Assembly: GCA_048937405.1 (NCBI GenBank)
Contig: JBHLNF010000001.1
Coordinates: 720,785-784,784, forward strand
Length of the DNA stretch: 64,000 bases
From: Promethearchaeota archaeon
GTDB lineage: Archaea > Asgardarchaeota > Lokiarchaeia > Sigyniarchaeales > SOKP01
Direction: 5' to 3'
The notes under the pieces are model-generated. The model was given only the letters and a program-made list of their open reading frames with translations. It searched no databases and was not told the origin of the DNA. This document shows positions 7,545 through 26,702 of the stretch, in pieces (the stretch's first letter is position 1; every line of letters begins with the position of its first letter). Both the position numbers and the translations under genes were made by a program.

Positions 7545-7822
7545 GTTTTATGACACTAGAAAAATTGAATGATCTATAGTTTATTCTTGCTTTTTAGAAA
7601 TAAAAAAGTTAACGATATCAAACAAATGCCAATCAATTCTTGAAACAAATAACAAAAACTTTTTTAGGTTCTTTTCTATAAATAATATAATAAATTGATG
7701 TAAACATAATAAGTCTGTCTTTGATAAAAAGAACTCAATAAATGTGAATCTGGTATGGATTTTAATAGAAAAAATGTTCTTGACCAATATATTTCTATAT
7801 TGAGTTTCTTCATTTTAAATGA

Positions 7823-7848
7823 ATTTAATAACAATTTTGTTATTAAAT
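7823..7848. promoter_or_regulatory. Perfect 12-bp inverted repeat overlapping a TATA-like element upstream of the his leader (candidate operator)
   Basis: ATTTAATAACAA-tt-TTGTTATTAAAT. It contains TTTAATAA about 30 nt upstream of the GTG at 7857. Confidence 0.5.
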
Positions 7849-7856
7849 CGAATGAT

Positions 7857-7919
7857 GTGAGAGTTGATTGCTTAAAAAACATTAATTCATACTTGCATCA
7901 TTGGCTACATCATGAATAA
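7857..7919 (+). CDS. Putative His-rich leader peptide of the his operon (MRVDCLKNINSYLHHWLHHE; the frame extends to an ATG at 7755)
   Basis: CAT CAT TGG CTA CAT CAT GAA TAA gives 4 His in the last 7 sense codons, 81 nt upstream of hisIE. The start codon is uncertain (GTG 7857, TTG 7800 or ATG 7755). Confidence 0.7.
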   Translation: MRVDCLKNINSYLHHWLHHE

Positions 7920-7990
7920 TTCCGATGAATTAGTATAATATTTTATCATTTATTCATCGGAATAAAATCGAACTAAATTATTTTAGTTTG
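7919..7990 (+). promoter_or_regulatory. his leader RNA structures (attenuator-like)
   Basis: Perfect 12-bp stem ATTCCGATGAAT (7919-7930) / ATTCATCGGAAT (7952-7963) starting on the leader stop codon. A second stem CGAACTAAA-ttat-TTTAGTTTG (7969-7990) abuts the GGGGGA SD. Confidence 0.65.
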
Positions 7991-8000
7991 GGGGATAATT

Positions 8001-8909
8001 ATGATAATATTAAAAATTAATATGAAGGATATGGAAACGGTTGGAGGCTTAAAAGAGTTTATAGATGGAGTATTTACAAAACGAAATTGGGATTTGTTTA
8101 TAACTCTTGTTCTTGAAGCTAATAAGGAAAGCCTTATTACACTGATAAAGGATGATATGCTTAAGATGGTTTCTAATAAGGTTAAAATATGGATAAATTC
8201 AGAAAATAATCAAAAAGAATTAATTAATTTAATAACAGAAAAGGGAATGACGATATACAATTCAGAATCTCATAAAAATGATGAGGTTTTAAGTTTGGAT
8301 TCAATAAAAGATTATTCATCAATAGATAATATTTTGTTTAAGATTTTAGATTTTGATAAAGCTAATGGACTGATACCAACAATTGTACAAGACCTTAATG
8401 ACAATGTACTAATGCTTGCATATTCATCAAAAGAGTCCTTGAAGGTTACAATCAAATATAGAAAATCAACTTATTTTAGCAGATCGAGGAATCGCCTATG
8501 GACTAAAGGTGAAGAATCAGGAAATTATCAAATTGTAAAGAGCATTCTTTACGATTGTGATGCGGATACTTTATTATTTAGGGTAAAACAGAAAGGTTTT
8601 GCTTGTCATAAAGGTACTTATTCTTGTTTTCAGGATCGGAAATTTTCTATAGGATATCTCTATGATTTAATAGTTGATAGAATCAAAAATTATAGTGTAA
8701 ATGAATCCTATAGTAAAAGACTTGCTGAGGATAATGAATTATTAATGTCTAAAATTGAGGAAGAGTGTAACGAAGTGATAAATTACACCGATAGGGATAA
8801 CTTAATTTGGGAAATTGCAGATATTGCATATTTTATTCTTGTATTAATGGCTACCAAAAAAATTAAACCTGAAGAAATAATAAATGAATTAAAGAGGAGG
8901 AACAAATGA
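8001..8909 (+). CDS. hisIE: Bifunctional phosphoribosyl-AMP cyclohydrolase / phosphoribosyl-ATP pyrophosphatase with a ~105-aa N-terminal extension
   Basis: HisI motifs GLIPTIVQD, SRSRNRLWTKGEESG, DCDADTLL, ACHKGTYSCF. HisE motifs SYSKRL, KIEEE, EIAD. Confidence 0.92.
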   Translation: MIILKINMKDMETVGGLKEFIDGVFTKRNWDLFITLVLEANKESLITLIKDDMLKMVSNKVKIWINSENNQKELINLITEKGMTIYNSESHKNDEVLSLDSIKDYSSIDNILFKILDFDKANGLIPTIVQDLNDNVLMLAYSSKESLKVTIKYRKSTYFSRSRNRLWTKGEESGNYQIVKSILYDCDADTLLFRVKQKGFACHKGTYSCFQDRKFSIGYLYDLIVDRIKNYSVNESYSKRLAEDNELLMSKIEEECNEVINYTDRDNLIWEIADIAYFILVLMATKKIKPEEIINELKRRNK

Positions 8910-9925
8910 AAGAAGATCAACAAAATTTATTTCCAAAATATAGATCTCGTCAAGTGAGATTAGCACTTCCTTCGAAAGGAAGAATGGAAGTTGAAACTCA
9001 AGAATTTTTAAGAAATTGCGGCTTTAATATACAAAGAAATAATAGACAATATATTGGAACAATAAAAGGACCTATAAATCTTCAATTGGTCTATCAACGA
9101 CAAGTAGATATTGTTAGGGGCATATTGAATGGGTCTTTAGAAATGGGTATTGTCGGTTATGATCTAGTACATGAATATTCATCTTTAGATGAACACGAGT
9201 TAATCATTATGCACAATGCATTAAACTTTGGAAAATGCAGCCTTGAAATAGCAATTCCTGAAGGATGGTCAGAAAAATCAATTGAAGAGATTAAACAGAA
9301 GAAGAAGTCAATTCGAGTTGCGACTAAATTTGCAAAACTCACAGATCAATTTCTCAAATCATTTGATATTAACTATGAGTTAATTCAGGGTAATGGTTCT
9401 CTTGAGGTGTATCCTGAATTAGGGTATAGTGATATTATAGTCGATCTTGTATCAACAGGTCAAACTTTAAAGGATAATCGATTAAAAAGGATTAAAGGTG
9501 GGCAAATAATGACTTCTGAGGCGGTACTTATTGGAAATCGAACAGCTTTAAAAAATGAGACTGTTTTAAAAGTTGCTCGTCAGGTGATTGAGTTTATTGA
9601 AGCTACTTTGAGAGCTCAAAATTTTGTTTCAATTTTTGTAAACATGAGAGGAGAAAGCCCAGAGGATATTGCTAATAATATTTTTTCTAAAGAGGGTCTT
9701 GAAGGGCTTCAAGGGCCTACAATCTCACCCGTCTTTACAAAAAGTAGAGAAAAAATGTATGCCAGTCATGTCATTGTTGAGAAAGAGAAATTACAACAAG
9801 CAATAAGAATTTTAAGAGAAATTGGGGGTAGTGGTGTGGTTGTTGCACCTACACTTTATATTTTTGAAGAAGAACCATTAAGGTATATTAAATTATTAAA
9901 AAATTTGGGGATTTATGATGATTAA
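8906..9925 (+). CDS. hisG: ATP phosphoribosyltransferase, long form
   Basis: RLALPSKGRM, GIVGYD, RVATKF, IIVDLVSTGQTLKDNRL, C-terminal GLQGPTISPV. Confidence 0.95.
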   Translation: MKEDQQNLFPKYRSRQVRLALPSKGRMEVETQEFLRNCGFNIQRNNRQYIGTIKGPINLQLVYQRQVDIVRGILNGSLEMGIVGYDLVHEYSSLDEHELIIMHNALNFGKCSLEIAIPEGWSEKSIEEIKQKKKSIRVATKFAKLTDQFLKSFDINYELIQGNGSLEVYPELGYSDIIVDLVSTGQTLKDNRLKRIKGGQIMTSEAVLIGNRTALKNETVLKVARQVIEFIEATLRAQNFVSIFVNMRGESPEDIANNIFSKEGLEGLQGPTISPVFTKSREKMYASHVIVEKEKLQQAIRILREIGGSGVVVAPTLYIFEEEPLRYIKLLKNLGIYDD

Positions 9926-11249
9926 AACTTATACAGTAGATGAGGCAAGAAAATCAATATTAAAAAGAGAACTTAGTTCTTCAAATGGAAATCTCAGAAG
10001 TGAAGGTGTTACTCCAGAGGAAAGTGTAAAGGCTATTGTAAAAGATGTAAAAGAAAGAAAAGATGCTGCACTTAAAGATTGGACATTAAGGTTTGATAAA
10101 GTAGAAATTGATCAATTTGAATTATTAGATGTTGATTTTGAAAAATATCTGAGCTCTATCAATCCTAAGTTAAGAGAAGCTTTAGAAATAGCATGCGACA
10201 GAATTTATAATTTTCATGAATCTCAACCTATCATCTCTTGGATGAATCACAAACTTGGAGGTCAAATAGGTCAAATAATAAAACCTATTGAAACAATAGG
10301 GATATATATTCCGGGAGGAATAGCTCCTCTGTTTTCCTCAATTTTAATGGCAGCCATACCAGCCATTGTAGCAGGTGTTAAAAATATTATATTCAGTTCT
10401 CCTCCCAATAAGCAAGGTAATTTACCAAACATTATCCTCGCAACTTTTGGGTTAATCAAGAAGTATGATATTAATATGAGAATTTTTAGAATAGGTGGAG
10501 CTCAAGCTATTGCAGCTATGGCATTTGGAACGGAACAAGTTCCCAGAGTAGATAAAATCGTAGGACCTGGAAATATCTATGTAAATTTAGCAAAGAAAGA
10601 AGTTTATGGAATAGTAGGAATTGATGGGATATATGGACCTACTGAAGCATTGGTAATTGCTGATGAAACAGCAAATCCCTCATTAGTTGCTTCAGATCTA
10701 TTAGCACAGGCAGAACATGATATTTTAGCCATTCCAATCTTAGTTACTTCTTCTGAAAATCTAATTTCATCTGTGAAAAAAGAGTTGGAAAGGCAAATTA
10801 TAACTCTGAAAGGAAAAGCTATTATTAAAGAATCTATTCAAAGCAATGGTGGTATTATTTTAACAAATTCAATAGAACAATCGATATTAATTTCAAATGA
10901 ATTTGCACCCGAACATTTATCTCTTATGATTAAAGAGCCTATGAAAGTTTTAGACAAAATAGAAAATGCAGGAGGAATTTTTATTGGAGAAAATTCCTTT
11001 GAAGTTTTAGGTGACTATATTGCAGGACCTAGTCATGTGATGCCGACAAATGGCACAGCTCGTTTTTCATCTGCTTTATCAGTTTATGATTTTATTAAAA
11101 GGATTAGTTATGTTTATTTAAATGAAGAAACATCTTTTAACTTATCTAAACATGCTGAAATAATAGCAAATTCTGAAAATTTAACAGGACATGCAAAAGC
11201 AGCGGCTTTAAGAACAACTCTAAATAAAAATACAAAGGAGGGGAGTTAA
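9915..11249 (+). CDS. hisD: Histidinol dehydrogenase
   Basis: GIYIPGG, GGAQAIAAMAFGT, GPGNIYV, DLLAQAEHD, APEHL, LGDYIAGPSHVMPT. Confidence 0.97.
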   Translation: MMIKTYTVDEARKSILKRELSSSNGNLRSEGVTPEESVKAIVKDVKERKDAALKDWTLRFDKVEIDQFELLDVDFEKYLSSINPKLREALEIACDRIYNFHESQPIISWMNHKLGGQIGQIIKPIETIGIYIPGGIAPLFSSILMAAIPAIVAGVKNIIFSSPPNKQGNLPNIILATFGLIKKYDINMRIFRIGGAQAIAAMAFGTEQVPRVDKIVGPGNIYVNLAKKEVYGIVGIDGIYGPTEALVIADETANPSLVASDLLAQAEHDILAIPILVTSSENLISSVKKELERQIITLKGKAIIKESIQSNGGIILTNSIEQSILISNEFAPEHLSLMIKEPMKVLDKIENAGGIFIGENSFEVLGDYIAGPSHVMPTNGTARFSSALSVYDFIKRISYVYLNEETSFNLSKHAEIIANSENLTGHAKAAALRTTLNKNTKEGS

Positions 11250-12383
11250 TTGGATAAAAAAAATTATATTATTAAACCATCGAAAATCATTCGGAAGTTC
11301 TTAGATTCACAGAATTATGATTCACTTTCATATTTAGATAAATCAAGTCAGGAAAATGAGATGATTTTTTTAGATAAAAATGAAAGTCCTTTTGTACCGC
11401 CTTTAGGGGATTTAGTTAATTTAAAGTCATTAAATATCTTAAAAAATTATCCAGATTTGAATGCTAATACATTTTTGGATAAACTATCAAAGGATCTTAA
11501 AATTCCTATTTCATATTTTTTAGCAGGAACAGGCTCTAATGAAATAATAGGTCTGATCATTAAGATCTATGCCACTCCTAAAACTAAAATTTTAAGCATT
11601 AATCCAACCTTTTCAATGTATCAATTCTTTGCTAATATAAATGGTGCAAAATATGAATCGTTTCCCTTAAGATTATTAATAAATAAAGCAACGGGAATTG
11701 CGGAATATGATTTAGATCAATCTGGTTTTATGAAAAGGGCTAAATCATCAAATATTATAATCTTAGCGCGACCAAATAATCCAGATGGGATTATAATCTC
11801 TCTTGATTTTATTAAACAACTTCTAAAATTGAAAAAGTTAGTAATTATTGATGAAGCTTATATTGATTTCAGTGATGGTCCGAGTTTAATAGATTTCATC
11901 AAGTCTTATGATAATTTAATTATTTCTCGGTCATTTAGTAAGTCTTACTCTCTTGCAGGATTAAGATTAGGGTATACAATATCAGATCCTTCTATTAATG
12001 AGATATTAATTCGTATAAAAAGCCCCTTCAATGTGAATAATCTAGCTTTGCAGTATGGTTTATTATTACTAGATAAGAAGGATGAGATTTCAGCAAATAT
12101 TAATAAAATTAAATCAATTCGACAAGAATTTTTTAAGGATCTTCTTAGTTTAAGAGAAAAAAATAAAACTTTTTATATACATCCTAGTCAAACGAATTTT
12201 ATTTTATTAAGATTTGAATCTTCTAAAATATCAGATTCAGTTTATCAATACTTATTAAAAAATAAAATTAAAGTAAGAAATTATGGAGAAGAACTTTCAA
12301 ATTGTTTAAGATTTTCAATAGGTACAAGATTACAAATGAAAAAGGTAATAGAAATATTGAAATCATATTTTGAGGAGAATTAA
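11250..12383 (+). CDS. hisC: Histidinol-phosphate aminotransferase
   Basis: LDKNESP, GSNE, PNNPDG, IDEAY, RSFSKSYSLAGLRLGY. TTG start with a GGAGG SD. Confidence 0.92.
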   Translation: MDKKNYIIKPSKIIRKFLDSQNYDSLSYLDKSSQENEMIFLDKNESPFVPPLGDLVNLKSLNILKNYPDLNANTFLDKLSKDLKIPISYFLAGTGSNEIIGLIIKIYATPKTKILSINPTFSMYQFFANINGAKYESFPLRLLINKATGIAEYDLDQSGFMKRAKSSNIIILARPNNPDGIIISLDFIKQLLKLKKLVIIDEAYIDFSDGPSLIDFIKSYDNLIISRSFSKSYSLAGLRLGYTISDPSINEILIRIKSPFNVNNLALQYGLLLLDKKDEISANINKIKSIRQEFFKDLLSLREKNKTFYIHPSQTNFILLRFESSKISDSVYQYLLKNKIKVRNYGEELSNCLRFSIGTRLQMKKVIEILKSYFEEN

Positions 12384-12384
12384 T

Positions 12385-12990
12385 ATGGAAAGAAAAGCAA
12401 AATTAGAAAGAAAAACAAAAGAGACCAGTATTGAAATCGAAATGAATATTGATGGAAGTGGAGATACTAAGATTAATACCTCCATTGGTTTTTTTGATCA
12501 TCTTCTTACCCAGATTGCTGTTCATGGATCATTTGATATGAAAATTCTTGCAGAGGGTGATCTTAATGTTGATAATCATCATTTAATTGAGGATACTTCT
12601 ATTGTTTTAGGTAAAGTTTTCAACAAGGCTTTGGGAAATAAAATTGGCATTACACGAGTTGGACATTGCTTTTTTCCCATGGATGAGAGCCTTGCGTTTG
12701 TTGCTATAGATATTTCTTCAAGACCATTTTTTAAAAAAGAAATTAATTGGACAAATCCATTTTTAGGATCTAAGGAGGATAATTTAATCCCAGTCGATTT
12801 AATAGAGCATTTTTTATATACATTTTCAATTAATGCCCAAATAACACTTCATGTTAGAGTCCTCTATGGTCAAAATAACCATCATATTGCTGAAGCGATA
12901 TTTAAAGCTCTGGGCAAAGCATTGGATTATAGCTCTAGAATTGATTCAAAGGGGAATCGAAAACTTCCTTCAAGTAAAGGAATATTATAA
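12385..12990 (+). CDS. hisB: Imidazoleglycerol-phosphate dehydratase (monofunctional)
   Basis: RKTKET, FFDHLL, DNHHLIED, PMDESL, NNHHIAEAIFKA, PSSKG. Start placed at ATG 12385, after a GAGGAG SD. Confidence 0.95.
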   Translation: MERKAKLERKTKETSIEIEMNIDGSGDTKINTSIGFFDHLLTQIAVHGSFDMKILAEGDLNVDNHHLIEDTSIVLGKVFNKALGNKIGITRVGHCFFPMDESLAFVAIDISSRPFFKKEINWTNPFLGSKEDNLIPVDLIEHFLYTFSINAQITLHVRVLYGQNNHHIAEAIFKALGKALDYSSRIDSKGNRKLPSSKGIL

Positions 12991-13003
12991 GTTGGTTTTT
13001 AAC

Positions 13004-13597
13004 ATGATTACTATAATAGATTATGGAAGTGGCAATCTTCGGTCGATTCAAAAAAGTGTCCAAAGATTTTATCCGAAGGTAATTATTTCAAGAGATCTTG
13101 CTTTAATAGAGAAATCTAAAGGTTTAATTCTTCCTGGAGTAGGCGCATTTGGTGATGCTGTTAAAGAACTCGAACAATATGGGTTATTCTACCCATTAAA
13201 AGATATTATTGAAACAGTTCCAACAATGGGAATTTGCTTAGGCATGCAGCTATTATTTTCAAATTCTGAAGAATCTCCAGATGTTAACGGATTAGATATC
13301 ATCCCCGGAAAGGTGACTAAATTAGACTCATATCAATCAATCAGAATCCCTCATACTGGATGGAATAGACTAATTCCATCATCGAAACCATATTTTTATG
13401 GCTATGTATACTTTAATCATTCATATTATTGTGACCCTGATGATAAAAATTATATAATCTCTTATGTAAATCATGGGATTTCAATTCCAGTTATAATCTT
13501 AAAGGATCACATAATTGCTGCTCAATTTCATCCTGAGAAAAGTCAAAATGCTGGTGATAGAATTATCAATTATTTCATTTCCTTAATAAAGAGGTGA
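13004..13597 (+). CDS. hisH: Imidazole glycerol phosphate synthase, glutaminase subunit
   Basis: IIDYGSGNLRS, LPGVGAF, GICLGMQ, QFHPEKS. Start placed at ATG 13004. Confidence 0.95.
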   Translation: MITIIDYGSGNLRSIQKSVQRFYPKVIISRDLALIEKSKGLILPGVGAFGDAVKELEQYGLFYPLKDIIETVPTMGICLGMQLLFSNSEESPDVNGLDIIPGKVTKLDSYQSIRIPHTGWNRLIPSSKPYFYGYVYFNHSYYCDPDDKNYIISYVNHGISIPVIILKDHIIAAQFHPEKSQNAGDRIINYFISLIKR

Positions 13598-13604
13598 CTA
13601 TATT

Positions 13605-15107
13605 ATGAAAAAAATAATACCAGCTATGGATCTTTTAGATGGTAACGTGGTTAGGTTATATAAAGGGGATTTTGATAGAATTGATAATTATTATAAAAGA
13701 CCTGTTGAACTTCTTAAGCAATTTTTTAATCAAGGGATTGAGCAAATACACGTTATAAATCTAAATGGAGCAAAATCAGGTGAATTTGAGAATGGACCTA
13801 ATTATGATGTTATTCGATCTTTAATTCAAGAAAGTAAAAAATGGGGTTCTAAAATTCAATTAGGAGGGGGTATTAGAACAGAAAGAACTATTAGAGAATT
13901 ACTTGATCTAGGACTTTATAAGGTTATTATAGGTACTATTACTATTGAAAATCCAACTCTTTTTAGACATTTAATGAAAAAATACAAAGATGATATAATA
14001 GTTGCACTGGATGTTCTTAATGGTAATTTGAGAATAAAGGGTTGGCTCGAAGATTCTAATATCAATTTAGAATCTCATTTTAAAACTTTGGAAGAACAAG
14101 GAGTTTCAAACTTTATAATAACTGATGTTTCACGAGACGGAACGTTAGGAGGTCCTAATTTTCAGATCTACAAGAAAATCTCAAATCTCAGATATCCTGA
14201 CACTAGAATAATCGCTTCTGGAGGTATAAGTAATTTAAATGATATTAACCAAGTTCTAAATTATGCAGATGGTGTAATTATCGGAAAAGCTTATTATAGC
14301 AATAAAATAAGCAATAAAAATCTAAGAGATTTAACAAAGAAGTATGACCCCACTAATTTAGCAAAAAGAATAGTGCCATGCCTTGATATTAAAGATGGAA
14401 GAGTAGTAAAGGGTGTTCAATATATCAACTTACGAGATAGTGGAGATCCTGTAGAACTATCTAGATTCTATAATACAGAAGGCGCGGATGAATTAGTATT
14501 CCTAGACATTTCTGCAACTTTAGAAAAACGATCAATATTGTTTCAAACTTTAAGAAAAGTTTCTGAACAGGTATATATTCCTTTTACAGTAGGAGGTGGT
14601 ATTAGAAATTTGAATGATATAACAAATATCATTAATGCAGGGGCAGAAAAAGTAAGTATTAACACTGCTGCTGTAGATAATCCCAAAGTTATCACTGAAG
14701 GTGCTCAAAAGTTTGGAAGTCAGTCTATTGTGTGTGCAATTGATGTAAAAAAAAAAGGAGATGCTTGGGAAGTATATATAAAGGCGGGTACTGAATCAAC
14801 AGGATTAGATGCAATAGAATGGGCAAAAGAAGTTGTTGAAAGGGGAGCAGGGGAACTACTTGTTACTAGTATGGATCGAGATGGTACTCAAATAGGCTAC
14901 GACTTTAAATTAATTCAAAGTCTCACTAATGTGATATCTGTACCATTAATTGCTTCAGGTGGAGCAGGTAATTATGAACATTTTTATCAAGCTATTAAAG
15001 CTGGGGCAGAGGCGGTCTTAGCAGCATCTTTATTCCATACAAAGACAATAAAAATTAAGGATTTAAAATCTTATCTTCATAAGAGAGATATAAAAGTTAG
15101 ATTTTAG
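13605..15107 (+). CDS. hisA/hisF: HisA-HisF fusion protein
   Basis: N-terminal half: [43 protein letters not shown]-terminal half from ~14358: [37 protein letters not shown]. Confidence 0.95.
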
Positions 15108-15289
15108 TAAATCTCATACATAGCAGAGTTTTAAATAAATTCTAACTGAAATATAATTTTCTAGTTTTATTTAATAAAAAATCCTAAATTCTAACATTAT
15201 CTCGTATTAGACAAAAAAAATAAAAAAAGAAATTCTTTTTTATATATCTAACATATAGTTGCTATTATATGAGTTTAACTTTAAATAAA

Positions 15290-15943: not shown

Positions 15944-16302
15944 ATCATCTTGAGAAATAAATATTACACCTCTTTCCTTTCTCGTATTATTAAATTAATT
16001 AAATATAAATTCAGAAGTTAGTTAGTTTAAATTCTTTGACAATATATAACGAATTTTTACATCTACTTTATAATAGAAATTATATTTAAGCTTTTTTTTT
16101 ACGAACTTTTTTAACCTAAAAATAGGTGTCCAAAAATAAAGAACAAAATTTTAATAAATATTACATATTGAGAATTGTAAATAGAACTATTGAAAGAAGT
16201 TTGATTCCAATAGAGGCAAAAACTTTAAAGACTCAAAAAAAAAAAATAAAATTATATAATTAAATAGAGATTCGATTATAAACATAAAAAATATTTATAA
16301 TT

Positions 16303-17409
16303 ATGCTAGACGACTTATTTATAATTACCGACACAGGACAATTAATCTTTAGTTGGCACTGGGAGGAAAGTGATAGTGTTAAAGATGATGATCTTATTAG
16401 CGGTTTTCTTACCGCTCTAGATAGTTTTGCTAGTATAGAAAGAGGAGAAGATATAAAATCCTTACAATTAAAAGAAACTCATATAATTTTTGAGAAAAGT
16501 TCTAATCAAGTTCAGAAACTTACCTTTGTTGTCACTACTAAGAATGAAGAATTGATAGAATTATTACACTCAATTGTTCATGATATTATGGATACTTTTA
16601 CTACGACTTTTAAAGAACACCTGAATAGAGAATTTGATGGTGAAATTTCTAAATATAAAATATTTCATGATATCTTAAAAAATATTATTCATTCAAGGGG
16701 ACTAGATACTTTAAACGATTCTGTTAGGCAAATTAATGATGGAGGTGCACTTAAATCGATTGTATTCCTTGAACCAAAAGGAGGAAATATTTTTTTTATT
16801 CATGCAAGGCAATTTGTAAATAAAGATAAATTGAGTTTTCTTATCCCTTTAATTGTCAATTCTGCCCAATTATTATACAAAAATAATCTTGGAGAGAATG
16901 TACATTGGATATTATTAACGACTATTAGAAATGAAAATATCCTTGTAGAAATCAGAAGCAAAATTATTATAGTAAAACAATACCAATTGCCAGAAAACAT
17001 TGAAAAAGATTTCTTAGAATTAGAATTTTTTAAAAGTAAAGAAAAGTATGTTAAGAAACCAAAGAAAGTTATCGAAAAATTTGAAAATTTAATATGGGAT
17101 CCCAGAATTAAACAAATCTTTCTTGTTGATTTAGTTGGTAAAATTCTTTACTCTAAAATAATTGATGATAAATATGATTGTACGGAATATATTCCAGAAA
17201 CAATTAGTGTGCTTACTTCCTCAAAAAAAATAAGTGAAGAGACATATAATCGGATTTTATTCAATACATCTCTCGGTGGAGAGAATATAACTACTATCTG
17301 TATGAATTTTAATAATATAGCTTTAACTATGATAGGTAACATTAGAGATATAAATACATTTCAAACAATACAAGATATCTGCTATAAAATATTTCTTCAA
17401 GTTAAGTAG
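16303..17409 (+). CDS. Longin-domain protein with two further longin/roadblock-like modules
   Basis: N-terminal LFIITDTGQLIFS...DDLISGFLTALDSFA (typical Asgard longin). Similar beta-hairpin starts recur later (SIVFLEPKGGNIFF; QIFLVDLVGKILYS). Confidence 0.65.
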   Translation: MLDDLFIITDTGQLIFSWHWEESDSVKDDDLISGFLTALDSFASIERGEDIKSLQLKETHIIFEKSSNQVQKLTFVVTTKNEELIELLHSIVHDIMDTFTTTFKEHLNREFDGEISKYKIFHDILKNIIHSRGLDTLNDSVRQINDGGALKSIVFLEPKGGNIFFIHARQFVNKDKLSFLIPLIVNSAQLLYKNNLGENVHWILLTTIRNENILVEIRSKIIIVKQYQLPENIEKDFLELEFFKSKEKYVKKPKKVIEKFENLIWDPRIKQIFLVDLVGKILYSKIIDDKYDCTEYIPETISVLTSSKKISEETYNRILFNTSLGGENITTICMNFNNIALTMIGNIRDINTFQTIQDICYKIFLQVK

Positions 17410-17527
17410 TTTAACTTTACAATTTAAGCATTAGTTTTAAATACAATAATATTATAAAGGAAATTATTCTAAAATCTTAATTCACAAATCAAAAATAATA
17501 ATCTCAAAAAATTAAGGGGATCTTAAG

Positions 17528-18613: not shown

Positions 18614-18788
18614 AGAGTTTTACCTCTTTTATATTTATATAGTAAAAGATATAAAAAATATGTATTATAGTACCTTTTTGGGATTTTAAGAAAATGAGAT
18701 GTGAAGAACTTCAAAGAGAAAAATTACTTAATCTACTCATTGAAGAATCTATTCAGTATATTTTTATTAATAAAAGAGAAGATAATAA

Positions 18789-20123
18789 ATGACTGGAATT
18801 CTAGATGGTATAATTATATTAGATTTTTCTGAATATATTGCTGGTCCATATTGTGGGGGACTTCTTTCCGATTTGGGTGCAGAAGTAATAAAAATCGAAC
18901 CTCCTGATGGATCGGAAGAAAGAAGATGGGGAAATTCCAAAATATTTAAAGGAAGTACTAGATCTGCTTTAACAATGAATAGGAATAAGAAAAGTCTTTG
19001 TCTGGATATTAGAAAGGAAGAAGCCAAGAATATTATTTATCGGCTTGTTGAAAAGGCTGATGTTGTACTTCAAAATTACACCCCTGGAGTCGCTGAAAAA
19101 CTTGGGATTGATTATGACACTCTATCAACCATTAACAAAAAGTTGATTTTCATCTCAAGTACTGCATTTGGAGAAATTGGCCCCTATCAAAATCGTAGAG
19201 GTTTAGATCTTATTGCACATGCGGCTTCTGGCATTATGGCTTATTATGCTGATGAAGATGGTAACCCTAAGGGACCAGGAGGAATCCCATATATTGATAT
19301 CTGTACAGCTATGCTCAACGCTTTTAGTGTTGTGGCTGCTCTTTTTAACAGAATAAAGACTAGAGAGGGTCAAAAAATTGAAACCTCACTTTTTACCACT
19401 GCTTTGGCTTTACAACTTACTAGTGTTACAAACATCGAGAAATTGGAGAAGGAAAGATATAAAGAAGAATTGGATCTTTTAAGCAATGCTTTTCAAGAGG
19501 GAAAATCTCATACAGAGATTATCGATGAATTAATGTACTTGAAACGACGATATGATCGACCTGAAGCAACTAGAATAATTGATGTTCCAGATTGTAATCA
19601 TAGGCCAGCAGACAGATATTTTTTCCCTTATTATAGGATTTATGAAACAGCAAATGGTTTTATCAGTATTGCTGCGATAACCAGTCGACAGAGAAAAATT
19701 GTATGTGATGTGATAGATATTTACGATAAGGGAGCTGAGGTTGAATTTGGTGATATAACTGATGAGGTTATCAATCATCAACAAGAATTGACACATCAGA
19801 TTGAAAAGCGATTTCGTGAAAAGACAAAGGAAGAATGGATCGAAGCTCTGGAAAATGCTGGGATTCCATGTGGACAAGTAAATTATAGTGTGGATCTATT
19901 CTATGATCCTCAAGTGAAGGCTATGAATATGATATGGGATCTTGAAAATAGTGAACATGGTGCTTATAAAATGATCGGGCATCCAATTAAATTCTCAAAA
20001 ACTCCAGTTAAACCTAGAAAAGGCGCCCCAACTTTAGGCGAGGACTCGGTTTCTGTTCTGGAACAGTTTGGTTTCACTAAAAAAGAGATCACAGAGTTTA
20101 AAAAACAGTCTATTATAAAATGA
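18789..20123 (+). CDS. Family III CoA-transferase (CaiB/BaiF)
   Basis: AGPYCGGLLSDLGAEVIKIEPPDG, NRNKKSLCLD, ADVVLQNYTPG, APTLGED. Confidence 0.93.
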   Translation: MTGILDGIIILDFSEYIAGPYCGGLLSDLGAEVIKIEPPDGSEERRWGNSKIFKGSTRSALTMNRNKKSLCLDIRKEEAKNIIYRLVEKADVVLQNYTPGVAEKLGIDYDTLSTINKKLIFISSTAFGEIGPYQNRRGLDLIAHAASGIMAYYADEDGNPKGPGGIPYIDICTAMLNAFSVVAALFNRIKTREGQKIETSLFTTALALQLTSVTNIEKLEKERYKEELDLLSNAFQEGKSHTEIIDELMYLKRRYDRPEATRIIDVPDCNHRPADRYFFPYYRIYETANGFISIAAITSRQRKIVCDVIDIYDKGAEVEFGDITDEVINHQQELTHQIEKRFREKTKEEWIEALENAGIPCGQVNYSVDLFYDPQVKAMNMIWDLENSEHGAYKMIGHPIKFSKTPVKPRKGAPTLGEDSVSVLEQFGFTKKEITEFKKQSIIK

Positions 20124-20286
20124 CTGAATAGAAAAGCTTTTCTAATTTTTGTTAATATTTTGAAATGTTTTTTTATCGTTTTATCAAGTCTTTTTCAAAC
20201 TTAAAAAATTTTTTCTGAAACAAGATTGAGTGTTAGTATTGGTTTTTTTAATAAATTAGTATGATTTTAATGATAATTTAAAAAAA

Positions 20287-20625
20287 CTAACCGGGGTAAT
20301 CATTTTTTGATCCCATTAGAGTAGTTGTTTCTTCGATCCATTGAGATAAATCTTTATCAATTCTACAGAATGTAACAATTTTATCTAAATCTCTTAGTCT
20401 ACTAAATGAGCATTCTACCATAACATCCCATCCTCCATAAACAGGAGTAGCATATGTTATGTTCCAATCTTCTTTTGGATCTGTTGATTTTAAGCCCCTG
20501 AGTTTATCAACAACTTTCCATTCAGAACCAATTACTTTTAAGCGAATTAGTATATACCCTCTATAATACAATTTATGTGCATTGTTATTATTTTTGACAA
20601 CTTTATTATTCTTTTTTAGTTTCAT
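20287..20625 (-). CDS. Stand-alone Lrp/AsnC ligand-binding (RAM) domain protein
   Basis: GYILIRLKVIGSEWKVVDKL...VYGGWDVMVE...IEETTTL, with no HTH. Overlaps the argG 3' end and has a GGAGG SD. Confidence 0.7.
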   Translation of the reverse strand: MKLKKNNKVVKNNNNAHKLYYRGYILIRLKVIGSEWKVVDKLRGLKSTDPKEDWNITYATPVYGGWDVMVECSFSRLRDLDKIVTFCRIDKDLSQWIEETTTLMGSKNDYPG

Positions 20626-21907
20626 ATTTTATTACCTCCTCTATTTGATCTTTATTTGAATATCCTGTTATTGATTTAGCAATATTTCTTACTTGAAAAC
20701 CAATCTCACTTTGTAGTCCCCATATTGGAATGAATCCATAACTCAATTTTTGATTGAACGTACTCTTGGTATCATATGTAGCTAAATTTATATCATAAAG
20801 CCCATAAGGAGATTCTCTTGAAACCACGCTAGCGTTCCCCTTGAAAAGTTTCACTTTTACTTCTCCTGTAACCTTTTCATTTACAACATTAATAAATGCT
20901 TCTAAGGCGTCTCTTAACGGATCCACCCACAATCCTTCATAAATTAATTCTGTCCAACGTTGGTCTACTATCGTTTTAAATGAATTCTCATGTTTAGTAC
21001 AGACAAATTTTTCAAGATCTTTATGTGCCTTAATTAATATTAAAGCTGTTGGAACTTCATATACCTCCCTTGATTTTAATCCAATCGCTCGATCTTCCAT
21101 ATGATTTACTCTTCCAATTCCGTGTTTACAACCAATTTTATGTAATTCTCCAATTAAATCAACACCATTAATCTTTCTACCATTTAAACAGACTGGTATT
21201 CCTTTTTCAAAAGATATTTGGAGATATTTTGGTGTATCAGGCGCAGTTTCGGGTGAAGTTGTCCAAGAGAAACAATCTTCTGGGGGTTCAATTTCTGGGT
21301 TTTCTAAGACATCACATTCTGCACTTCTCCCGAAAAGATTCTCATCAACACTATATTTTTTATATTGTTGTTGAATAGGAATTCCATGGAGTTGAGCATA
21401 TTTAATTTCTTCATCTCTACCCATATTCCATTCTATTAAAGGTTGTAATATTTCAATATTAGGAGCATAAGCTCTCATTGTCACATTAAACCGTATTTGA
21501 TCATTTCCTTTTCCTGTACAACCATGAGCTATTGCCTCAATATTCTCTTGTTGTGCAATGTTTATAGCTTCAATAGCTATCAATGGTCTTCCTACTGCCG
21601 TGCTTAGGGGGTAAACTCCTTGATACAAACCGTTTGCTTTAATGGTAGGAAATAAATAATTATTTACAAACTTCTCTTTTAAATCTACGGTGTAGTGCTT
21701 AATCACCCCTAAATTATATGCCTTTTCCTCAATTTCCTTAAATCTGGATGGATCTGCGAATTCCTGACCGAGATCTGCTGTAAAAGTATAAATTTCAGAA
21801 CTATATTTATCTTGTAACCATTTTATCATGCAAGAAGTATCCAGACCACCAGAATACATCAATAAAATTTTATTATATTTATTTTTTTTAGGTCCTAACT
21901 GATTCAT
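20606..21907 (-). CDS. argG: Argininosuccinate synthase
   Basis: YSGGLDTS, HGCTGKGNDQIRF, YSVDENL, GLKSREVYE. Confidence 0.97.
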   Translation of the reverse strand: MNQLGPKKNKYNKILLMYSGGLDTSCMIKWLQDKYSSEIYTFTADLGQEFADPSRFKEIEEKAYNLGVIKHYTVDLKEKFVNNYLFPTIKANGLYQGVYPLSTAVGRPLIAIEAINIAQQENIEAIAHGCTGKGNDQIRFNVTMRAYAPNIEILQPLIEWNMGRDEEIKYAQLHGIPIQQQYKKYSVDENLFGRSAECDVLENPEIEPPEDCFSWTTSPETAPDTPKYLQISFEKGIPVCLNGRKINGVDLIGELHKIGCKHGIGRVNHMEDRAIGLKSREVYEVPTALILIKAHKDLEKFVCTKHENSFKTIVDQRWTELIYEGLWVDPLRDALEAFINVVNEKVTGEVKVKLFKGNASVVSRESPYGLYDINLATYDTKSTFNQKLSYGFIPIWGLQSEIGFQVRNIAKSITGYSNKDQIEEVIKYETKKE

Positions 21908-21955
21908 TAATCACTCACTTTCTTTTATTAATATCTATTATTTTATTATAATTTT

Positions 21956-23002
21956 TTATATAGGGAACATAGGAATTGATTTTAAACCTATATTCTCTTT
22001 TAAATTAAACATTAAATTCATATTTTGAACAGCTTGTCCTGCTCCACCCTTGACTAGATTATCAATTGCTCCAATTATAATTATTCTATTAGCTTTTTCA
22101 TCTAAACAAAATCCAATATCGCAATAATTTGATCCTTTAACCCATTTCGTTTCAGGGAATTCGTTTTTACCCATTAACCGAATAAAAAATTCATTACTAT
22201 AATTTTTTTCATATATTTTTTTGATATCTTCATAATTATATGACTTTTTGAGAATTCCATAGCAGGTACATAATATTCCTCTATTCATAGGGAGGAGATG
22301 CGGAGTAAAAATTACTGAAATTTCATTTCCTTTTAATTCACCTAATTCTTGTTCGATTTCTGGAGTATGTCGGTGAGATAATACTTTATATGCCTTAGTT
22401 GATTCATTACATTCTGAAAAATGGGTTCCAAGATTTAAAGATCTTCCAGCTCCTGATACTCCTGATTTTGCATCAATAATTATATTCCTTTCGTCCAAAA
22501 TCCCTTCTTTTATAAGAGGTAATAAACATAATAACGCACAAGTAGGATAGCAACCAGGATTAGCTACTAATTTTGAACTCTTTATTTGGTCTCTTTTCCA
22601 TTCTGAAAGACCGTAGACGGCTTTATTCAACAGACTAGCATTATTATGTTTAATACTATACCATAACTCGTATTCATCTACATTCTTTAATCGAAAATCT
22701 GCACTTAGATCAATAACTTTTACATTTTTTAAAATATCATCTGTTAATATCTCTGAAGTAACTCCATGAGGTAATGATAGAAATATGATATCAAGTTGGT
22801 TTATTGCAGAATTAAGATCATCCTCATCACAGATCATCTCACATATTTTATTGAAGTTTGAATAAACAGAATTATAACTTTGATTTTTATGATTTTTAGA
22901 TGTTAATAATTTTAATTCTACTTCAGGATGATTATATAAAATTCTGACTAATTCTGATCCTATATATCCAGTTGCTCCTATTATACCCGCTCTAATCATC
23001 AT
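21956..23002 (-). CDS. argC: N-acetyl-gamma-glutamyl-phosphate reductase
   Basis: IIGATGY, IDLSADFRL, ANPGCYPT, SGVSGAGR, HRHTPEI, DNLVKGGAGQAVQN. Confidence 0.97.
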   Translation of the reverse strand: MMIRAGIIGATGYIGSELVRILYNHPEVELKLLTSKNHKNQSYNSVYSNFNKICEMICDEDDLNSAINQLDIIFLSLPHGVTSEILTDDILKNVKVIDLSADFRLKNVDEYELWYSIKHNNASLLNKAVYGLSEWKRDQIKSSKLVANPGCYPTCALLCLLPLIKEGILDERNIIIDAKSGVSGAGRSLNLGTHFSECNESTKAYKVLSHRHTPEIEQELGELKGNEISVIFTPHLLPMNRGILCTCYGILKKSYNYEDIKKIYEKNYSNEFFIRLMGKNEFPETKWVKGSNYCDIGFCLDEKANRIIIIGAIDNLVKGGAGQAVQNMNLMFNLKENIGLKSIPMFPI

Positions 23003-24204
23003 TATAAGCCTTTATTATTTTTATTCTGTTGTAAAACATCATCAAGGATAGATATTCCTTCATCAATTTCATTTTTGCTAATAATCAGTGGTGGAACAAA
23101 TCTTATTACATTTTCTCCAGCACCTAATATAAGTAAACCTTGTTCCATAGATTTTTCTACTATATCCTTAACAGGAGTATTTAGTTCCAAACCAAGTATC
23201 AAACCATAACCTCTAACATCCTTAATCATAGCATATTTTTCCTTTAAAGTTGCTAGTTTCTCTTTTAGATATTCCCCTTGTTTTCGTACATTTTCAAGGA
23301 TTCCACCGTTTAACAATTTATTCAGTACTACTTTACCTGCTGTACATGCTAAATGATTACCTCCAAACGTTGATGCATGATCACCTGGTTGAAAAGCATC
23401 TGCTTTACTTTGAATTGCCAACATTGCTCCTATGGGAATACCTCCACCTAAACCTTTTGCTAATGAAACTACATCAGGTTTTACATCAAATATTTGATAT
23501 GCAAATAATTCACCAGTTCTTCCAATGCCACATTGAACTTCATCAAATACAAGTACAATATCTTTTTCATCACACAGAGCTCTTACTTTTTTTAAGTAAG
23601 ATTTCTCAGCAGGATGAATTCCTCCTTCACCTTGTATAGGCTCTATTATTATAGCACATGTGTCTTCATTAACTGCTCCTTTTAACTCATTAAAGTTATT
23701 TAATTCAACATAGGAAAATCCAGGCATTAGTGGATCAAATCCTTTTTGATATTTAGTCTGACCTGTAGCAGTGACAGTGGCCATTGTTCTTCCGTGAAAC
23801 GATCTCTTCATTGTGATAATTTTATGACAATTATCTCCATGGACTTTCTTTCCATATTTTTTACATAATTTTATTGCGGCTTCTACCGCCTCAGCTCCAC
23901 TATTACAATAAAAAATTTTATCGAAACAGCTATTTTTAATTAAAATCTCTCCTAACTCAATTGAGGGCATCATCCAGTACAAATTTGAACAATGTTGCAT
24001 TTTTTTTAATTGTGCAATAATTTCTTGGATATAATCAGGATCATTATAGCCTAAAGCATTTACAGCTATCCCAGCAACAAAATCTACATACTTTTTTCCA
24101 TCACTATCCCAGAGATAGATTCCATTTCCTTTTTCTAATACAATGGGAAACTGTTTATAAGTATTCATTATAACCTTAGTTCCCCTTTCAATCCAATCAC
24201 TCAT
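23002..24204 (-). CDS. argD: Acetylornithine aminotransferase
   Basis: DFVAGIAVNALG, NSGAEA, SFHGRT, EPIQGEGG, DEVQCG, AKGLGGG, HASTFGGN. Start placed at ATG 24204, after a GAGAGGA SD. Confidence 0.95.
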   Translation of the reverse strand: MSDWIERGTKVIMNTYKQFPIVLEKGNGIYLWDSDGKKYVDFVAGIAVNALGYNDPDYIQEIIAQLKKMQHCSNLYWMMPSIELGEILIKNSCFDKIFYCNSGAEAVEAAIKLCKKYGKKVHGDNCHKIITMKRSFHGRTMATVTATGQTKYQKGFDPLMPGFSYVELNNFNELKGAVNEDTCAIIIEPIQGEGGIHPAEKSYLKKVRALCDEKDIVLVFDEVQCGIGRTGELFAYQIFDVKPDVVSLAKGLGGGIPIGAMLAIQSKADAFQPGDHASTFGGNHLACTAGKVVLNKLLNGGILENVRKQGEYLKEKLATLKEKYAMIKDVRGYGLILGLELNTPVKDIVEKSMEQGLLILGAGENVIRFVPPLIISKNEIDEGISILDDVLQQNKNNKGL

Positions 24205-24247
24205 AATTAAATTCCTCTCTTTCATTTTTATATTTTTTTTTATAATA

Positions 24248-25108
24248 TTACTTTTTAAACATTGTACCAATCCCTTGAGGGGTAAAAATTTCAAGTAAAA
24301 GACTATGTTCAATTCTTCCATCAATAATATGAACTGCTTTTACATCATTATTTATTGCTTCTATACAACTTCTTACTTTTGGAATCATCCCTTCTGTAAT
24401 TTTACCTTCTCTAATATAAGATAAAGCTTGTTCAGTCTTCAATTCTGATATTAGTGAATTGTTATCATTTACATCTAGAAGTACTCCTAAAACGTCAGTT
24501 ATATAGATTAACTTTTCTACATTTAATGCTTTTGAAATAGCTAGTGCTACTTCATCAGCATTAATATTATATGTATTTCCTAAATTATCTGAGCCTATTG
24601 GTGCAATAACTGGAATTAAAGCATTTTTAAGTATCCCTTTCAAAAATTGAGTATTCACTTCAGTAACCTCTCCAACAAAACCTAAATCTTCTCCGTCAAC
24701 CATTTTTTTCTTTACTTTCAATAAATTACTATCTTTCCCACTCAGTCCTAATGCATTACTTCCTTGAGTCTGAATATCATTTACAATTCCTTTATTTATT
24801 TTTCCAGCTAATACCATTTCGACAACATCCATTGTTTCTTCATCAGTAATTCTAAGTCCATTAAAAAATTTTGACTCGATCTTTAATTTTCTTAATAAAA
24901 TATTAATTGAAGCTCCGCCCCCATGCACAACTATTATATTAATTCCTACGAAATCGAGGAAAACAAGATCTTCAATAAAACCCTTTTTAAGCTCAGGTTT
25001 TACCATTGCGCTACCACCATATTTTATAACAAAAGTTTTTCCATAAAATGCTCTAATGTATTTTATTGCTTCTATCAAAATTCTTGCTTTTCCAATATTT
25101 TCAATCAT
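24248..25108 (-). CDS. argB: Acetylglutamate kinase
   Basis: VIKYGGSAM, VVHGGG, GLRITD, YNINAD, GMIPKV, HSLLLEIFT. Start placed at ATG 25108, after an AAGGTGG SD. Confidence 0.96.
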   Translation of the reverse strand: MIENIGKARILIEAIKYIRAFYGKTFVIKYGGSAMVKPELKKGFIEDLVFLDFVGINIIVVHGGGASINILLRKLKIESKFFNGLRITDEETMDVVEMVLAGKINKGIVNDIQTQGSNALGLSGKDSNLLKVKKKMVDGEDLGFVGEVTEVNTQFLKGILKNALIPVIAPIGSDNLGNTYNINADEVALAISKALNVEKLIYITDVLGVLLDVNDNNSLISELKTEQALSYIREGKITEGMIPKVRSCIEAINNDVKAVHIIDGRIEHSLLLEIFTPQGIGTMFKK

Positions 25109-25121
25109 TTTTTCCACCTTT

Positions 25122-26363
25122 TCAGGTTCTATAAGATCCATTAATTCGAACATAATCATAACTTAAATCACATCCCCATGCGATTGCTTCACTTTCTCCA
25201 TCCTTTAAAAGCAATTCTACAATAATTTCATTTTCTTTTAATATTTTTAGTGCTAAATCTTCATCAAATTGTAAAGCACTTCCATCTTTCATAACCTCGA
25301 TTGAATTAACATCATTCAAAAATTTTATTGATACTTTTAATGGATCAAATTTTGCTCCAGAGTAGCCCATTGCAGCAATAATCCTACCCCAATTTGCGTC
25401 TTCTCCAAAAAAGGCTGTCTTTACTAAATTTGAGGTTATTACGGATTTACTTAAGATTTTTGCATCTTGTTTTGATGCAGCTCCTTTGACGTGAACTGCA
25501 ATAAATTTGCTAGCTCCTTCTCCATCTCTTACAATCTCTTGAGCTAAATATAAATTTACATAGTGAAGTGCGTTTTTAAAAATAAAATATTCTTCACTTT
25601 CATCAAAAATTTCTGAGTTATTACCCATTCCATTAGCCAAAAGAATTACTGAATCACTGGTACTTGTATCACCATCTACAGAGATCATATTATATGATTC
25701 TTCAATACTTTCTCTAAACGCTTTTTCTAATAATTCTTTTGAAATATTAATATCAGTTGAAATAAATGAAAGCATAGTAGCCATATTTGGATGAATCATT
25801 CCAGAACCCTTCGCCATCCCTCCTATTCTAATTTTCTTATTATCAATAATAAATTCAACCGAGATCTCTTTAGGATGTGTATCTGTCGTCATAACTGCTT
25901 CAGCAGCTAATCTTGCATCTTTATCTCTACTCCCTATGTTTTTATACGTATTTTTAATACCCTCAATTATAATTTCAATTGGAAGAGGCTTTCCAATAAC
26001 TCCTGTAGAAGCAACAATTACTTGATTTTTCTTTATTCCTAAACAAGAGGCTAACTCAGCTGCCATCATTTCATTATGTTTAATTCCCATTTCTCCTGTA
26101 CAAACATTCGCATTTCCACTATTAACGACTATGCCTTGTATCAAATTGTGATTTTGAATAAGATTTTGATTCCATAATACAGAAGGAGCTTTTACAATAT
26201 TTGTAGTAAAAACCCCTACTGCTTTAGCCGGAACTTCACTATATACTATAGCTAGGTCTTTCTTGCATTCTTTAATCCCTATATGGCAACCAGTAGCATG
26301 AAATCCTTTTGGACTTGTAATTCCTCCTTTTAATTTTGTTATATCAATATTTTTTTTTTCCAT
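25122..26363 (-). CDS. argJ: Ornithine acetyltransferase / N-acetylglutamate synthase
   Basis: NSGNAN, STGVIG, MTTDT, KGSGMIHPNMATML (autoproteolysis Thr), DGEGA, NWGRI, WGCDLSYDYVRINGSYRT. Confidence 0.97.
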   Translation of the reverse strand: MEKKNIDITKLKGGITSPKGFHATGCHIGIKECKKDLAIVYSEVPAKAVGVFTTNIVKAPSVLWNQNLIQNHNLIQGIVVNSGNANVCTGEMGIKHNEMMAAELASCLGIKKNQVIVASTGVIGKPLPIEIIIEGIKNTYKNIGSRDKDARLAAEAVMTTDTHPKEISVEFIIDNKKIRIGGMAKGSGMIHPNMATMLSFISTDINISKELLEKAFRESIEESYNMISVDGDTSTSDSVILLANGMGNNSEIFDESEEYFIFKNALHYVNLYLAQEIVRDGEGASKFIAVHVKGAASKQDAKILSKSVITSNLVKTAFFGEDANWGRIIAAMGYSGAKFDPLKVSIKFLNDVNSIEVMKDGSALQFDEDLALKILKENEIIVELLLKDGESEAIAWGCDLSYDYVRINGSYRT

Positions 26364-26436
26364 ATCTTAAAACATACCTTTTATTTCCATTTCTTGAACC
26401 TATTAAAATTTATATCTTGATTATTTTGTTTGAAAA

Positions 26437-26506
26437 ATTAATAAAAATAAAAAATTAGAAGAAGTGGAGAAAGAAGAATGACACTTCATTTCTTACTTTT
26501 ATTAAT
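26437..26506 (-). promoter_or_regulatory. arg leader long hairpin that sequesters a U-tract (attenuator-like)
   Basis: mRNA 5' arm AUUAAUAAAAGUAAGAAAU-GAAGUG pairs with CACUUC-(UUCUA)-AUUUUUUAUUUUUAUUAAU: 19 bp (2 GU) plus 6 bp. It begins 3 nt after the leader stop codon. Confidence 0.65.
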
Positions 26507-26509
26507 AAA

Positions 26510-26605
26510 TTAAAGACGGCGACGTGCCGAGTATAGATTGCGTAGTGCTTTTTGAAATTGTTTTCCTACAATTTCGTTATTCATATAAGAATCAAATAAA
26601 ATCAT
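26510..26605 (-). CDS. Putative Arg-rich leader peptide of the argJBDCG operon (MILFDSYMNNEIVGKQFQKALRNLYSARRRL; alternative start at 26584)
   Basis: ATG preceded by GGTG at 8 nt. The ORF ends GCA CGT CGC CGT CTT TAA, and all four Arg codons are CGY. It lies 146 nt upstream of argJ. Confidence 0.78.
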   Translation of the reverse strand: MILFDSYMNNEIVGKQFQKALRNLYSARRRL

Positions 26606-26655
26606 ACTTCAAACACCAACACAATATTAACAATAATTTAAAATAGGAACCTAAC

Positions 26656-26672: not shown

Positions 26673-26702
26673 TCTTCTTGATTATTTTTCAATAATCTGT
26701 TT

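Follow-up and report, generated by a model that had tools for sequence, protein, structure and literature searches.

Candidate leader-peptide control of amino-acid operons in an Asgard archaeon, with a possible inversion of the bacterial logic

Introduction

Ribosome-mediated attenuation is a textbook bacterial mechanism and needs translation to proceed alongside transcription. Could an archaeon govern its amino-acid operons in a similar manner? The question is raised by a 64,000-nucleotide (nt) stretch of a Promethearchaeota genome (G000:C7:720785-784784, hereafter the window; G+C content about 29 %), in which a histidine (his) and an arginine (arg) biosynthesis operon are each preceded by a short open reading frame (ORF) ending in a cluster of codons for the respective amino acid. 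No prokaryotes are more closely related to eukaryotes than the Asgard archaea. A literature search found no description of leader-peptide attenuation in archaea, and a 2026 review of termination signals across the domains of life does not mention ribosome-mediated attenuation in archaea.

The evidence gathered below makes it likely, in our judgement, that these ORFs belong to translated leaders whose cognate codons are sensed through the position of the ribosome, and that such leaders are a property of this archaeal family. The direction in which the ribosome would act on the operon is argued more tentatively.

Leader ORFs ahead of the his and arg operons

The initial annotation had pointed to two short upstream ORFs with His or Arg codons next to the stop, and both are present. 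The elements concerned are the following:

7755-7919, plus strand: His leader ORF, 54 codons, stop codon at 7917-7919
7990-7995, plus strand: Shine-Dalgarno (SD) site of hisIE
8001, plus strand: ATG start codon of hisIE
8001-15107, plus strand: his operon (hisIE, hisG, hisD, hisC, hisB, hisH and a hisA-hisF fusion; Pfam assignments)
26605-26510, minus strand: Arg leader ORF, 31 codons, stop codon at 26512-26510
26363-20287, minus strand: arg operon (argJ, argB, argD, argC, argG and a 112-codon ORF; Pfam assignments)
7657-7667, plus strand: T-rich element of 11 nt, AACTTTTTTAG, about 90 nt upstream of the His leader start
26650-26669, minus strand: TATA-like box after argH, about 45 nt upstream of the Arg leader start

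In the His leader, histidine codons at 7896-7901 and 7908-7913 place four His among the final seven sense codons. In the Arg leader the cluster CGT CGC CGT (26524-26516) is followed by a single Leu codon and the stop. Both starts are preceded at 7-9 nt by an SD-like site (GTGA at 7744-7747 in the His case), which is kept in the orthologous loci of both leaders.

Conservation was followed in a family sample of 134 genomes. A short form of hisIE occurs in 13 of them and a long form in 14. All 13 short-form loci have a homologous ORF of 36-54 codons with 4-6 His within its final 6-9 codons, and three of the 14 long-form loci also have a His-ended ORF, one of them with eight consecutive His. The reading frame is open throughout the 13 orthologues (no stop in 649 codons, against 51 and 103 in the other two frames), length differences in the alignment are multiples of three, and the distance from the leader stop to the hisIE ATG is nearly constant at 75-87 nt. 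Read-through from the His codons into hisIE by frameshifting was considered and rejected, as both other frames stop within 6-14 codons. The same picture emerges for arginine: all nine argJ loci of the family have an Arg-ended ORF of 30-35 codons with two to six Arg among the final ten, and its frame contains no stop in 284 codons, compared with 26 and 27 in the alternative frames. The cluster is written in CGY and CGG codons; in the genes of this genome AGA makes up 55 % of Arg codons and CGT plus CGC 15 %. The expectation that ORFs and cognate codons would be conserved in orthologous loci was thus borne out for both leaders. Among the genomes searched the Arg leader is confined to the source family: three further argJ loci, found in other families of the class, are without it, and none of 120 stretches returned by a metagenome scan with a loose pattern was a true homologue.

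Candidate promoter elements lie upstream of both leaders. The element AACTTTTTTAG recurs, unchanged or altered at one or two positions, in each of the 12 orthologous loci that have enough upstream DNA, and may be a promoter element similar to a transcription factor B recognition element (BRE) and TATA box. By itself it is not specific, because the genome contains 27 occurrences where about 17 are expected; one look-alike, at C17:248578, sits within a gene and was set aside as a chance match. On the arginine side, the A/T block with its TATA-like core at 26650-26669 is kept in the orthologues and is probably the promoter of the Arg leader.

RNA structure of the His leader

The alignment of the 13 His leaders supports five helices:

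7732-7740 with 7798-7806, plus strand: helix P0, 9 pairs, 94.9 % of alignment cells paired, 2 compensatory pairs
7824-7847, plus strand: helix P1, a hairpin within the ORF (RNAalifold), 9 pairs, 4 compensatory
7851-7858 with 7895-7902, plus strand: helix P2, 8 pairs, 89 % paired
7917-7966, plus strand: hairpin 1, adjoining the stop, consensus stem of 14 base pairs (bp), 95.9 % paired, 3 compensatory pairs
7968-7991, plus strand: hairpin 2, stem of 8 bp, 100 % paired, adjoining the hisIE SD site

Together they are paired in 94.9 % of cells and carry 12 compensatory pairs, compared with 4.5 +/- 1.4 in shuffled alignments and 1-4 in controls with slid partners. Helix P0 encloses the SD-like site and the start codon of the leader, and P2 joins a mid-ORF segment to the first two His codons; one of its pairs alternates between A-U (5 sequences) and G-C (5 sequences). 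Likewise, one pair of hairpin 2 is G-C in 10 sequences and A-U in three. P0 and P1 explain most of the apparent conservation of the His peptide, P1 accounting for its conserved motif.

Hairpin 1 starts without any gap: the leader stop codon lies in its foot. In the reference sequence it spans 7919-7963, with a 12-bp outer stem and an inner stem, and folding of the region 7900-8003 yields -25.5 kcal/mol (z = -4.15; one of 200 shuffles equally good). Hairpin 2 adjoins the hisIE SD site in all 13 sequences. A covariance model of hairpins 1 and 2 (R1), run on 150 genomes of the order, recovers exactly the 13 known loci, a single copy per genome and always before hisIE. In the reference sequence the loop of hairpin 1 contains only a U4 and a U3. 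The loop sequence is not conserved among the orthologues, and neither is any U tract in the hairpin, four of the 13 having no run of three U at all; nor do the orthologues have a run of at least five U after either hairpin, the longest after hairpin 2 being U3-U4.

Since the arms of hairpin 1 flank an A/T-rich, TATA-like loop some 40-60 nt before the SD, one might take it for a DNA palindrome, i.e. a transcription-factor operator around the hisIE promoter to which the ORF would be unrelated. Several pairs of the His leader, however, are G-U pairs possible solely in the sense-strand RNA. Five sequences keep the hairpin 1 stem by means of such pairs, as do other positions, which would break a palindrome in DNA and argues against an operator. 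With its loop sequence not conserved and the stop codon fixed within the stem foot, this explanation appears extremely improbable.

RNA structure of the Arg leader

26626-26613 with 26550-26537, minus strand: long-range helix (RNAalifold), 12 pairs, 96.9 % paired, 2 compensatory
26575-26554, minus strand: 8-bp hairpin in the ORF, inside the long-range helix, 100 % paired, 1 compensatory pair
26504-26439, minus strand: post-stop hairpin, 17 bp, interrupted, 96 % paired, no compensatory pair
26457-26433, minus strand: U-tract array, U6, U5 and U5 in this genome, U3-5 plus U7-8 in the orthologues

Here too the leader start region is structured: the long-range helix contains the SD-like GGTG (26617-26614) and pairs it with codons inside the ORF. 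The post-stop hairpin begins 4-5 nt past the stop. Its A-rich foot (26504-26498) pairs with U-rich RNA and its upper stem is formed by GAAGTG and CACTTC; the fold (z = -2.38, five of 200 shuffles equally good) is weaker than that of the His leader. For the whole Arg leader, 96.6 % of cells are paired and three compensatory pairs stand against 0.6 in controls.

The 3' side of the hairpin is rich in U (U6, U5), with a further U5 beyond it. In all eight orthologues compared, the hairpin is followed by U5-U8, which in seven is a U7 outside the hairpin. The array resembles what is found at the ends of operons in the window. Arrays of U4-U7 tracts without strong hairpins follow the end of the his operon (15108-15200) and a convergent CoA-transferase gene (20124-20200), and a U-tract array of this type may be the usual form of terminator in the source organism.

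Two structural details of the initial annotation have to be adjusted in the light of these alignments. A hairpin 0-3 nt after the stop holds for His (0 nt), but not for Arg (4-5 nt); and a U-rich tract in the hairpin loop or 3' side is found for Arg (U6, U5), whereas the His loop has only U4 and U3, which are not conserved. Covariation of the post-stop hairpin, proposed there as a check, is seen in His hairpin 1 and is missing from the Arg counterpart.

Specificity and further leaders in the genome

How easily could such frames arise by chance? From a crude gene map of the whole genome, 2342 upstream regions were scanned for frames ending in clusters of one amino acid, their antisense strands serving as the control. 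Frames with at least four His in the last eight codons were found 4 times in sense and 7 times in antisense, those with at least three Arg in eight codons 170 and 158 times. A His cluster is thus expected in about 0.2-0.3 % of upstream regions and an Arg cluster in about 7 %. The first supposition, that two such cases were unlikely by chance, is in keeping with the rare His cluster but not with RRR, which is ordinary. Within this single genome the evidence is weak on the Arg side and moderate on the His side; the case is carried by conservation in the relatives. Other His-rich frames precede an FtsZ-like gene and two genes without a name; being non-cognate and distant from those genes, they were taken as background. 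A repeat or mobile element was rejected as the source, the hairpin arms and Arg motifs being unique in the genome.

The anticipated cognate leaders before further amino-acid genes were found in the same genome for Trp, Leu and Ile:

L050:2400-2453, minus strand: Trp-rich ORF of 17 codons, 3 Trp in the final 7, before trpD (G000:C11:1149-2213)
L049:5744-5794, minus strand: Trp-rich ORF of 16 codons, 4 Trp in 7, before a TrpB2-like PALP gene (G000:C7:22178-23593)
L114 (G000:C7:560528-562600), L115 (G000:C20:77000-79067) and L116 (G000:C28:234351-237600): Leu and Ile candidate leader loci

The Trp leaders are kept in about 17 of 24 relatives (trpD) and in 27 of 30 (TrpB2-like), and in both the stop codon falls within a GC-rich hairpin. 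Upstream of a LeuA-type gene, at a distance of 87 nt, there is a run of Leu codons, and Ile runs precede a second gene of LeuA/CimA type and a class I (IleS-like) tRNA synthetase gene. With His and Arg included, this one genome has seven loci at which leader and pathway agree in their amino acid.

These data also bear on the possibility that the ORFs are ordinary small proteins, or not translated at all, with the RNA serving stability or protein binding and the cognate codons a by-product of the helices. RNA helices do account for much of the peptide conservation, and the Arg codons lie in a GC-rich patch able to form a small hairpin. However, the cognate codons differ in number (4-8 His, 2-6 Arg, 3-5 Trp) yet keep their place beside the stop, the amino acid fits the pathway at the seven loci, and frames with non-cognate clusters (before genes for an HsdM methylase, a phosphorylase and an FtsZ-like protein) occur in the scan at the background rate. 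A protein-family search including NCBIfam found no match for the leader peptides, which also speaks against ordinary small proteins. We regard this explanation as very unlikely.

Ribosome position and its read-out

In the proposed mechanism the leading ribosome would translate the leader during synthesis of the RNA. If charged tRNA-His, or the charged tRNA-Arg that reads CGY codons, is scarce, it would stall on the codon cluster, and when charged tRNA is plentiful it would get to the stop. Its position would set the stop-adjacent hairpin closed or open and thereby how much polymerase or translation reaches the operon.

This geometry was explored by constrained folding of 13 His and eight Arg leaders, with the ribosome represented as an unpaired block from -15 to +12 nt around the first base of the A-site codon. 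In the His leaders the 5' arm of hairpin 1 forms 10.6 pairs without a ribosome and 10.7 with a ribosome on the first His codon, but only 5.0 with one on the last His codon and 0.85 with one at the stop. In the Arg leaders a stalled ribosome never reaches the post-stop hairpin, and a terminating ribosome opens its A-rich foot; in the U array the unpaired share, 0.53 and 0.52 in the stalled states, is 0.68 at the stop and rises in all eight sequences.

The geometry suggested earlier, in which the hairpin foot is opened by a ribosome that has reached the stop and stays closed when the stall occurs at the start of the cognate cluster, is thus upheld by folding. That an upstream stall leaves the hairpin closed is true of the first His codons; a ribosome on the last ones half-opens hairpin 1. 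The idea that the hairpin hides a U tract fares unevenly as well. It fits the proximal Arg tracts, which pair with the A-rich foot and whose exposure grows from 0.52 to 0.68 in 8/8 leaders, but not the longest Arg run (U7, 7/8), which is located beyond the hairpin and stays exposed wherever the ribosome stands, and not the His leader, with no conserved U tract.

On the sign of the response we lean towards a closed hairpin meaning operon on, and a terminating ribosome that opens the hairpin meaning operon off. The tight, fixed spacing between stop and hairpin foot would have its simplest explanation in a terminating ribosome whose task is to open the hairpin. If the core proposal is granted, this sign has a chance somewhat short of even; taken overall, the inversion is doubtful. 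For Arg the off state would consist in premature termination at the U-tract array, while for His no off step is proposed. The genome encodes an orthologue of the termination nuclease FttA/aCPSF1 (G000:C16:29816-31726) with KH_TffA, KH, MBL, Beta-Casp and RMMBL domains. According to a review that cites Yue et al. 2020 (PMC13675443), an aCPSF1 of Lokiarchaeal origin can take the place of the host's own factor in Methanococcus maripaludis. In its widest form, the proposal would be of an Asgard genome-wide set of leaders (at least His, Arg, two Trp, Leu and two Ile) with logic inverted relative to bacteria: with the amino acid plentiful, the ribosome at the stop would expose U-rich RNA to aCPSF1/FttA and transcription would end, whereas a ribosome stalled upstream would let the hairpin stay closed and the operon be read. 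We hold this extended version to be possible, though on the unlikely side.

Several observations weigh against the reading given here. The His leader has no conserved U tract by which its output step could be explained. No conserved downstream pairing of the antiterminator type was found for either His or Arg, and the predicted accessibility of the hisIE SD hardly depends on ribosome position (0.39, 0.37, 0.31 and 0.35). It is conservation that speaks for the Arg post-stop hairpin, and conservation alone, because no compensatory change occurs in it. The Arg cluster is weak in some orthologues, with two or three Arg, and could in part be a by-product of the GC-rich local hairpin. Counts of loci overstate independence, because the relatives are close kin. 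Finally, translation is a prediction for both ORFs, as is the place where transcription begins.

The sign might instead be the classical bacterial one, with the post-stop hairpin (and, for Arg, the U run) acting as a terminator or other negative element. A stall at the last cognate codon would then block the 5' arm and allow read-through, and once a terminated ribosome has left, the hairpin would form and expression would drop. In favour of this, the Arg leaders have in 7/8 cases a long hairpin directly followed by U7, the shape of an intrinsic terminator; the His codons reach within one codon of the stop, so that hairpin 1 is halved by a ribosome standing on the last of them; and the last Trp codon of the Trp leaders lies inside the 5' arm of the hairpin. 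However, the stalled ribosome on the Arg leader does not reach the hairpin and an antiterminator pairing was not found. In the His leader no U run stands behind hairpin 1, and a stall on the first His codons would keep the operon off. A pairing of the His codons with the 5' arm of hairpin 1 was sought as an antiterminator; it can form in 87 % of cells, which is not above controls. Genuine operon ends in the window, moreover, are U-tract arrays without strong hairpins. All in all, we judge the classical sign unlikely.

Alternatively, and mainly for His, the read-out might not involve termination at all. Ribosome position would then alter translation initiation at hisIE or the stability or processing of the messenger RNA (mRNA), in a manner resembling translational attenuation of the erm/cat type or the poly-Cys leaders of mycobacteria. 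The absence of a conserved U tract from the His leader, the vicinity of hairpin 2 and the SD in 13/13 sequences and the almost fixed spacing of 75-87 nt between stop and hisIE ATG are all in keeping with such a read-out. Against it, the hisIE SD is predicted to be equally accessible in all ribosome states, and the 3' arm of hairpin 1, once freed, has no conserved partner: candidate downstream partners were rejected, their duplex energies being those of shuffled arms. A read-out of this kind strikes us as improbable, and for the sign we stay with the leaning towards a closed hairpin as the on state.

Genomic setting

Among named relatives, the nearest at the his locus is a Promethearchaeota metagenome-assembled genome, with 84 % identity in HisIE, so that an Asgard (Loki-type) origin of the window is sound. 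The hisA-hisF fusion (13605-15107, plus strand) is a single gene of 500 codons with two His_biosynth stretches. At its N-terminus HisIE is extended by about 135 residues (8001-8410, plus strand) that have no Pfam match and are common to the 13 genomes with this type of His leader. In 14 other relatives HisIE has about 400 residues and a different N-terminal part.

Upstream of the Arg leader lies argH:

26703-28187, minus strand: argH

The gap between argH and argJ is 339 nt. Immediately before the argJ start (26363) there is a mini-ORF of seven codons (26367-26390, minus strand), whose start aligns with the argJ start in all orthologues; in the source genome about 27 nt of the argJ start region seem to be duplicated.

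Within the family the operons are patchy. Among the 134 genomes there are 27 his, nine arg and 24 trpD loci, while the TrpB2-like gene is nearly universal (113/134), and the leaders travel together with their operons. Elsewhere in the window, an ORF of 368 codons (16303-17409, plus strand) weakly matches the first longin domain of FUZ/MON1/HPS1, a signature of eukaryotic character such as Asgard genomes typically carry. In the genome as a whole aragorn found only seven tRNAs, and a search for the 3' end of the 16S ribosomal RNA did not find it.

Relation to known systems and significance

The paradigm closest at hand for the His leader is enterobacterial hisL (RF00514). In both, the his operon is directly preceded, on its own strand, by a short ORF in which His codons are clustered; conserved hairpins follow this ORF, and the His codons themselves take part in a helix. 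However, hisL is bacterial and its peptide has 16 codons, compared with 36-54 in the archaeal leader, whose stop codon lies in a hairpin foot, whose second hairpin adjoins the SD and which has no terminator made of a hairpin and a U run. A cmscan of 7400-8100 and 26300-26760 against Rfam (E<=10) gave chance-level matches to unrelated families only, and neither leader region matched RF00514 His_leader, other Rfam leaders or the T-box families.

With E. coli trpL and its 1:2, 2:3 and 3:4 pairings the archaeal leaders share the proposed sensor, i.e. the position of the translating ribosome relative to competing helices, as well as a leader start region in a helix and cognate codons near the stop. 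They differ in having these codons in the second strand of a helix and adjoining the stop, and in having no supported antiterminator of the 2:3 type; as regards geometry, they are better suited to a terminating ribosome that acts on the hairpin. At the sensing step the archaeal elements would act like hisL and trpL, while lacking a supported antiterminator, an Rfam match and, for His, a terminator.

For a read-out by FttA/aCPSF1 the nearest analogue is TnaC of the tna operon, where a ribosome at or near the leader stop controls the access of the termination factor Rho to the RNA downstream. TnaC, however, senses free tryptophan through its nascent peptide, whereas the archaeal leaders are proposed to respond to how much charged tRNA is available. 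The factors differ too: Rho translocates at the expense of ATP, and FttA is a nuclease bound through Spt5 (PMC13675443). Short poly-Cys ORFs in mycobacteria also tune operon expression to amino-acid supply (bioRxiv 10.1101/834739). What they have in common with the archaeal leaders is a cognate-rich upstream ORF and a scheme other than the enterobacterial terminator; they are bacterial, leaderless and specific for Cys, while the archaeal ORFs have SD-like sites and long conserved structures.

The fungal arginine attenuator peptide (the upstream ORF of arg-2/CPA1) is likewise encoded by an upstream ORF that controls an arginine-synthesis gene, and bears no sequence relation to the archaeal Arg leader. 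There the nascent peptide senses free arginine at the stop codon, and the ORF has no cluster of Arg codons. The kinship of Asgard archaea with eukaryotes makes this comparison worthwhile. Arginine synthesis is classically controlled by repressors, not by leader peptides, which makes the Arg leader unusual in itself.

If it is real, a conserved set of leaders at several operons would mean that the prokaryotes nearest to the eukaryotes make use of coupled translation to control their genes. It would also provide a compact natural test object for archaeal termination, in which U tracts, FttA/aCPSF1 and Spt5 meet a leading ribosome, and would allow a comparison with the upstream-ORF control of amino-acid genes in eukaryotes.

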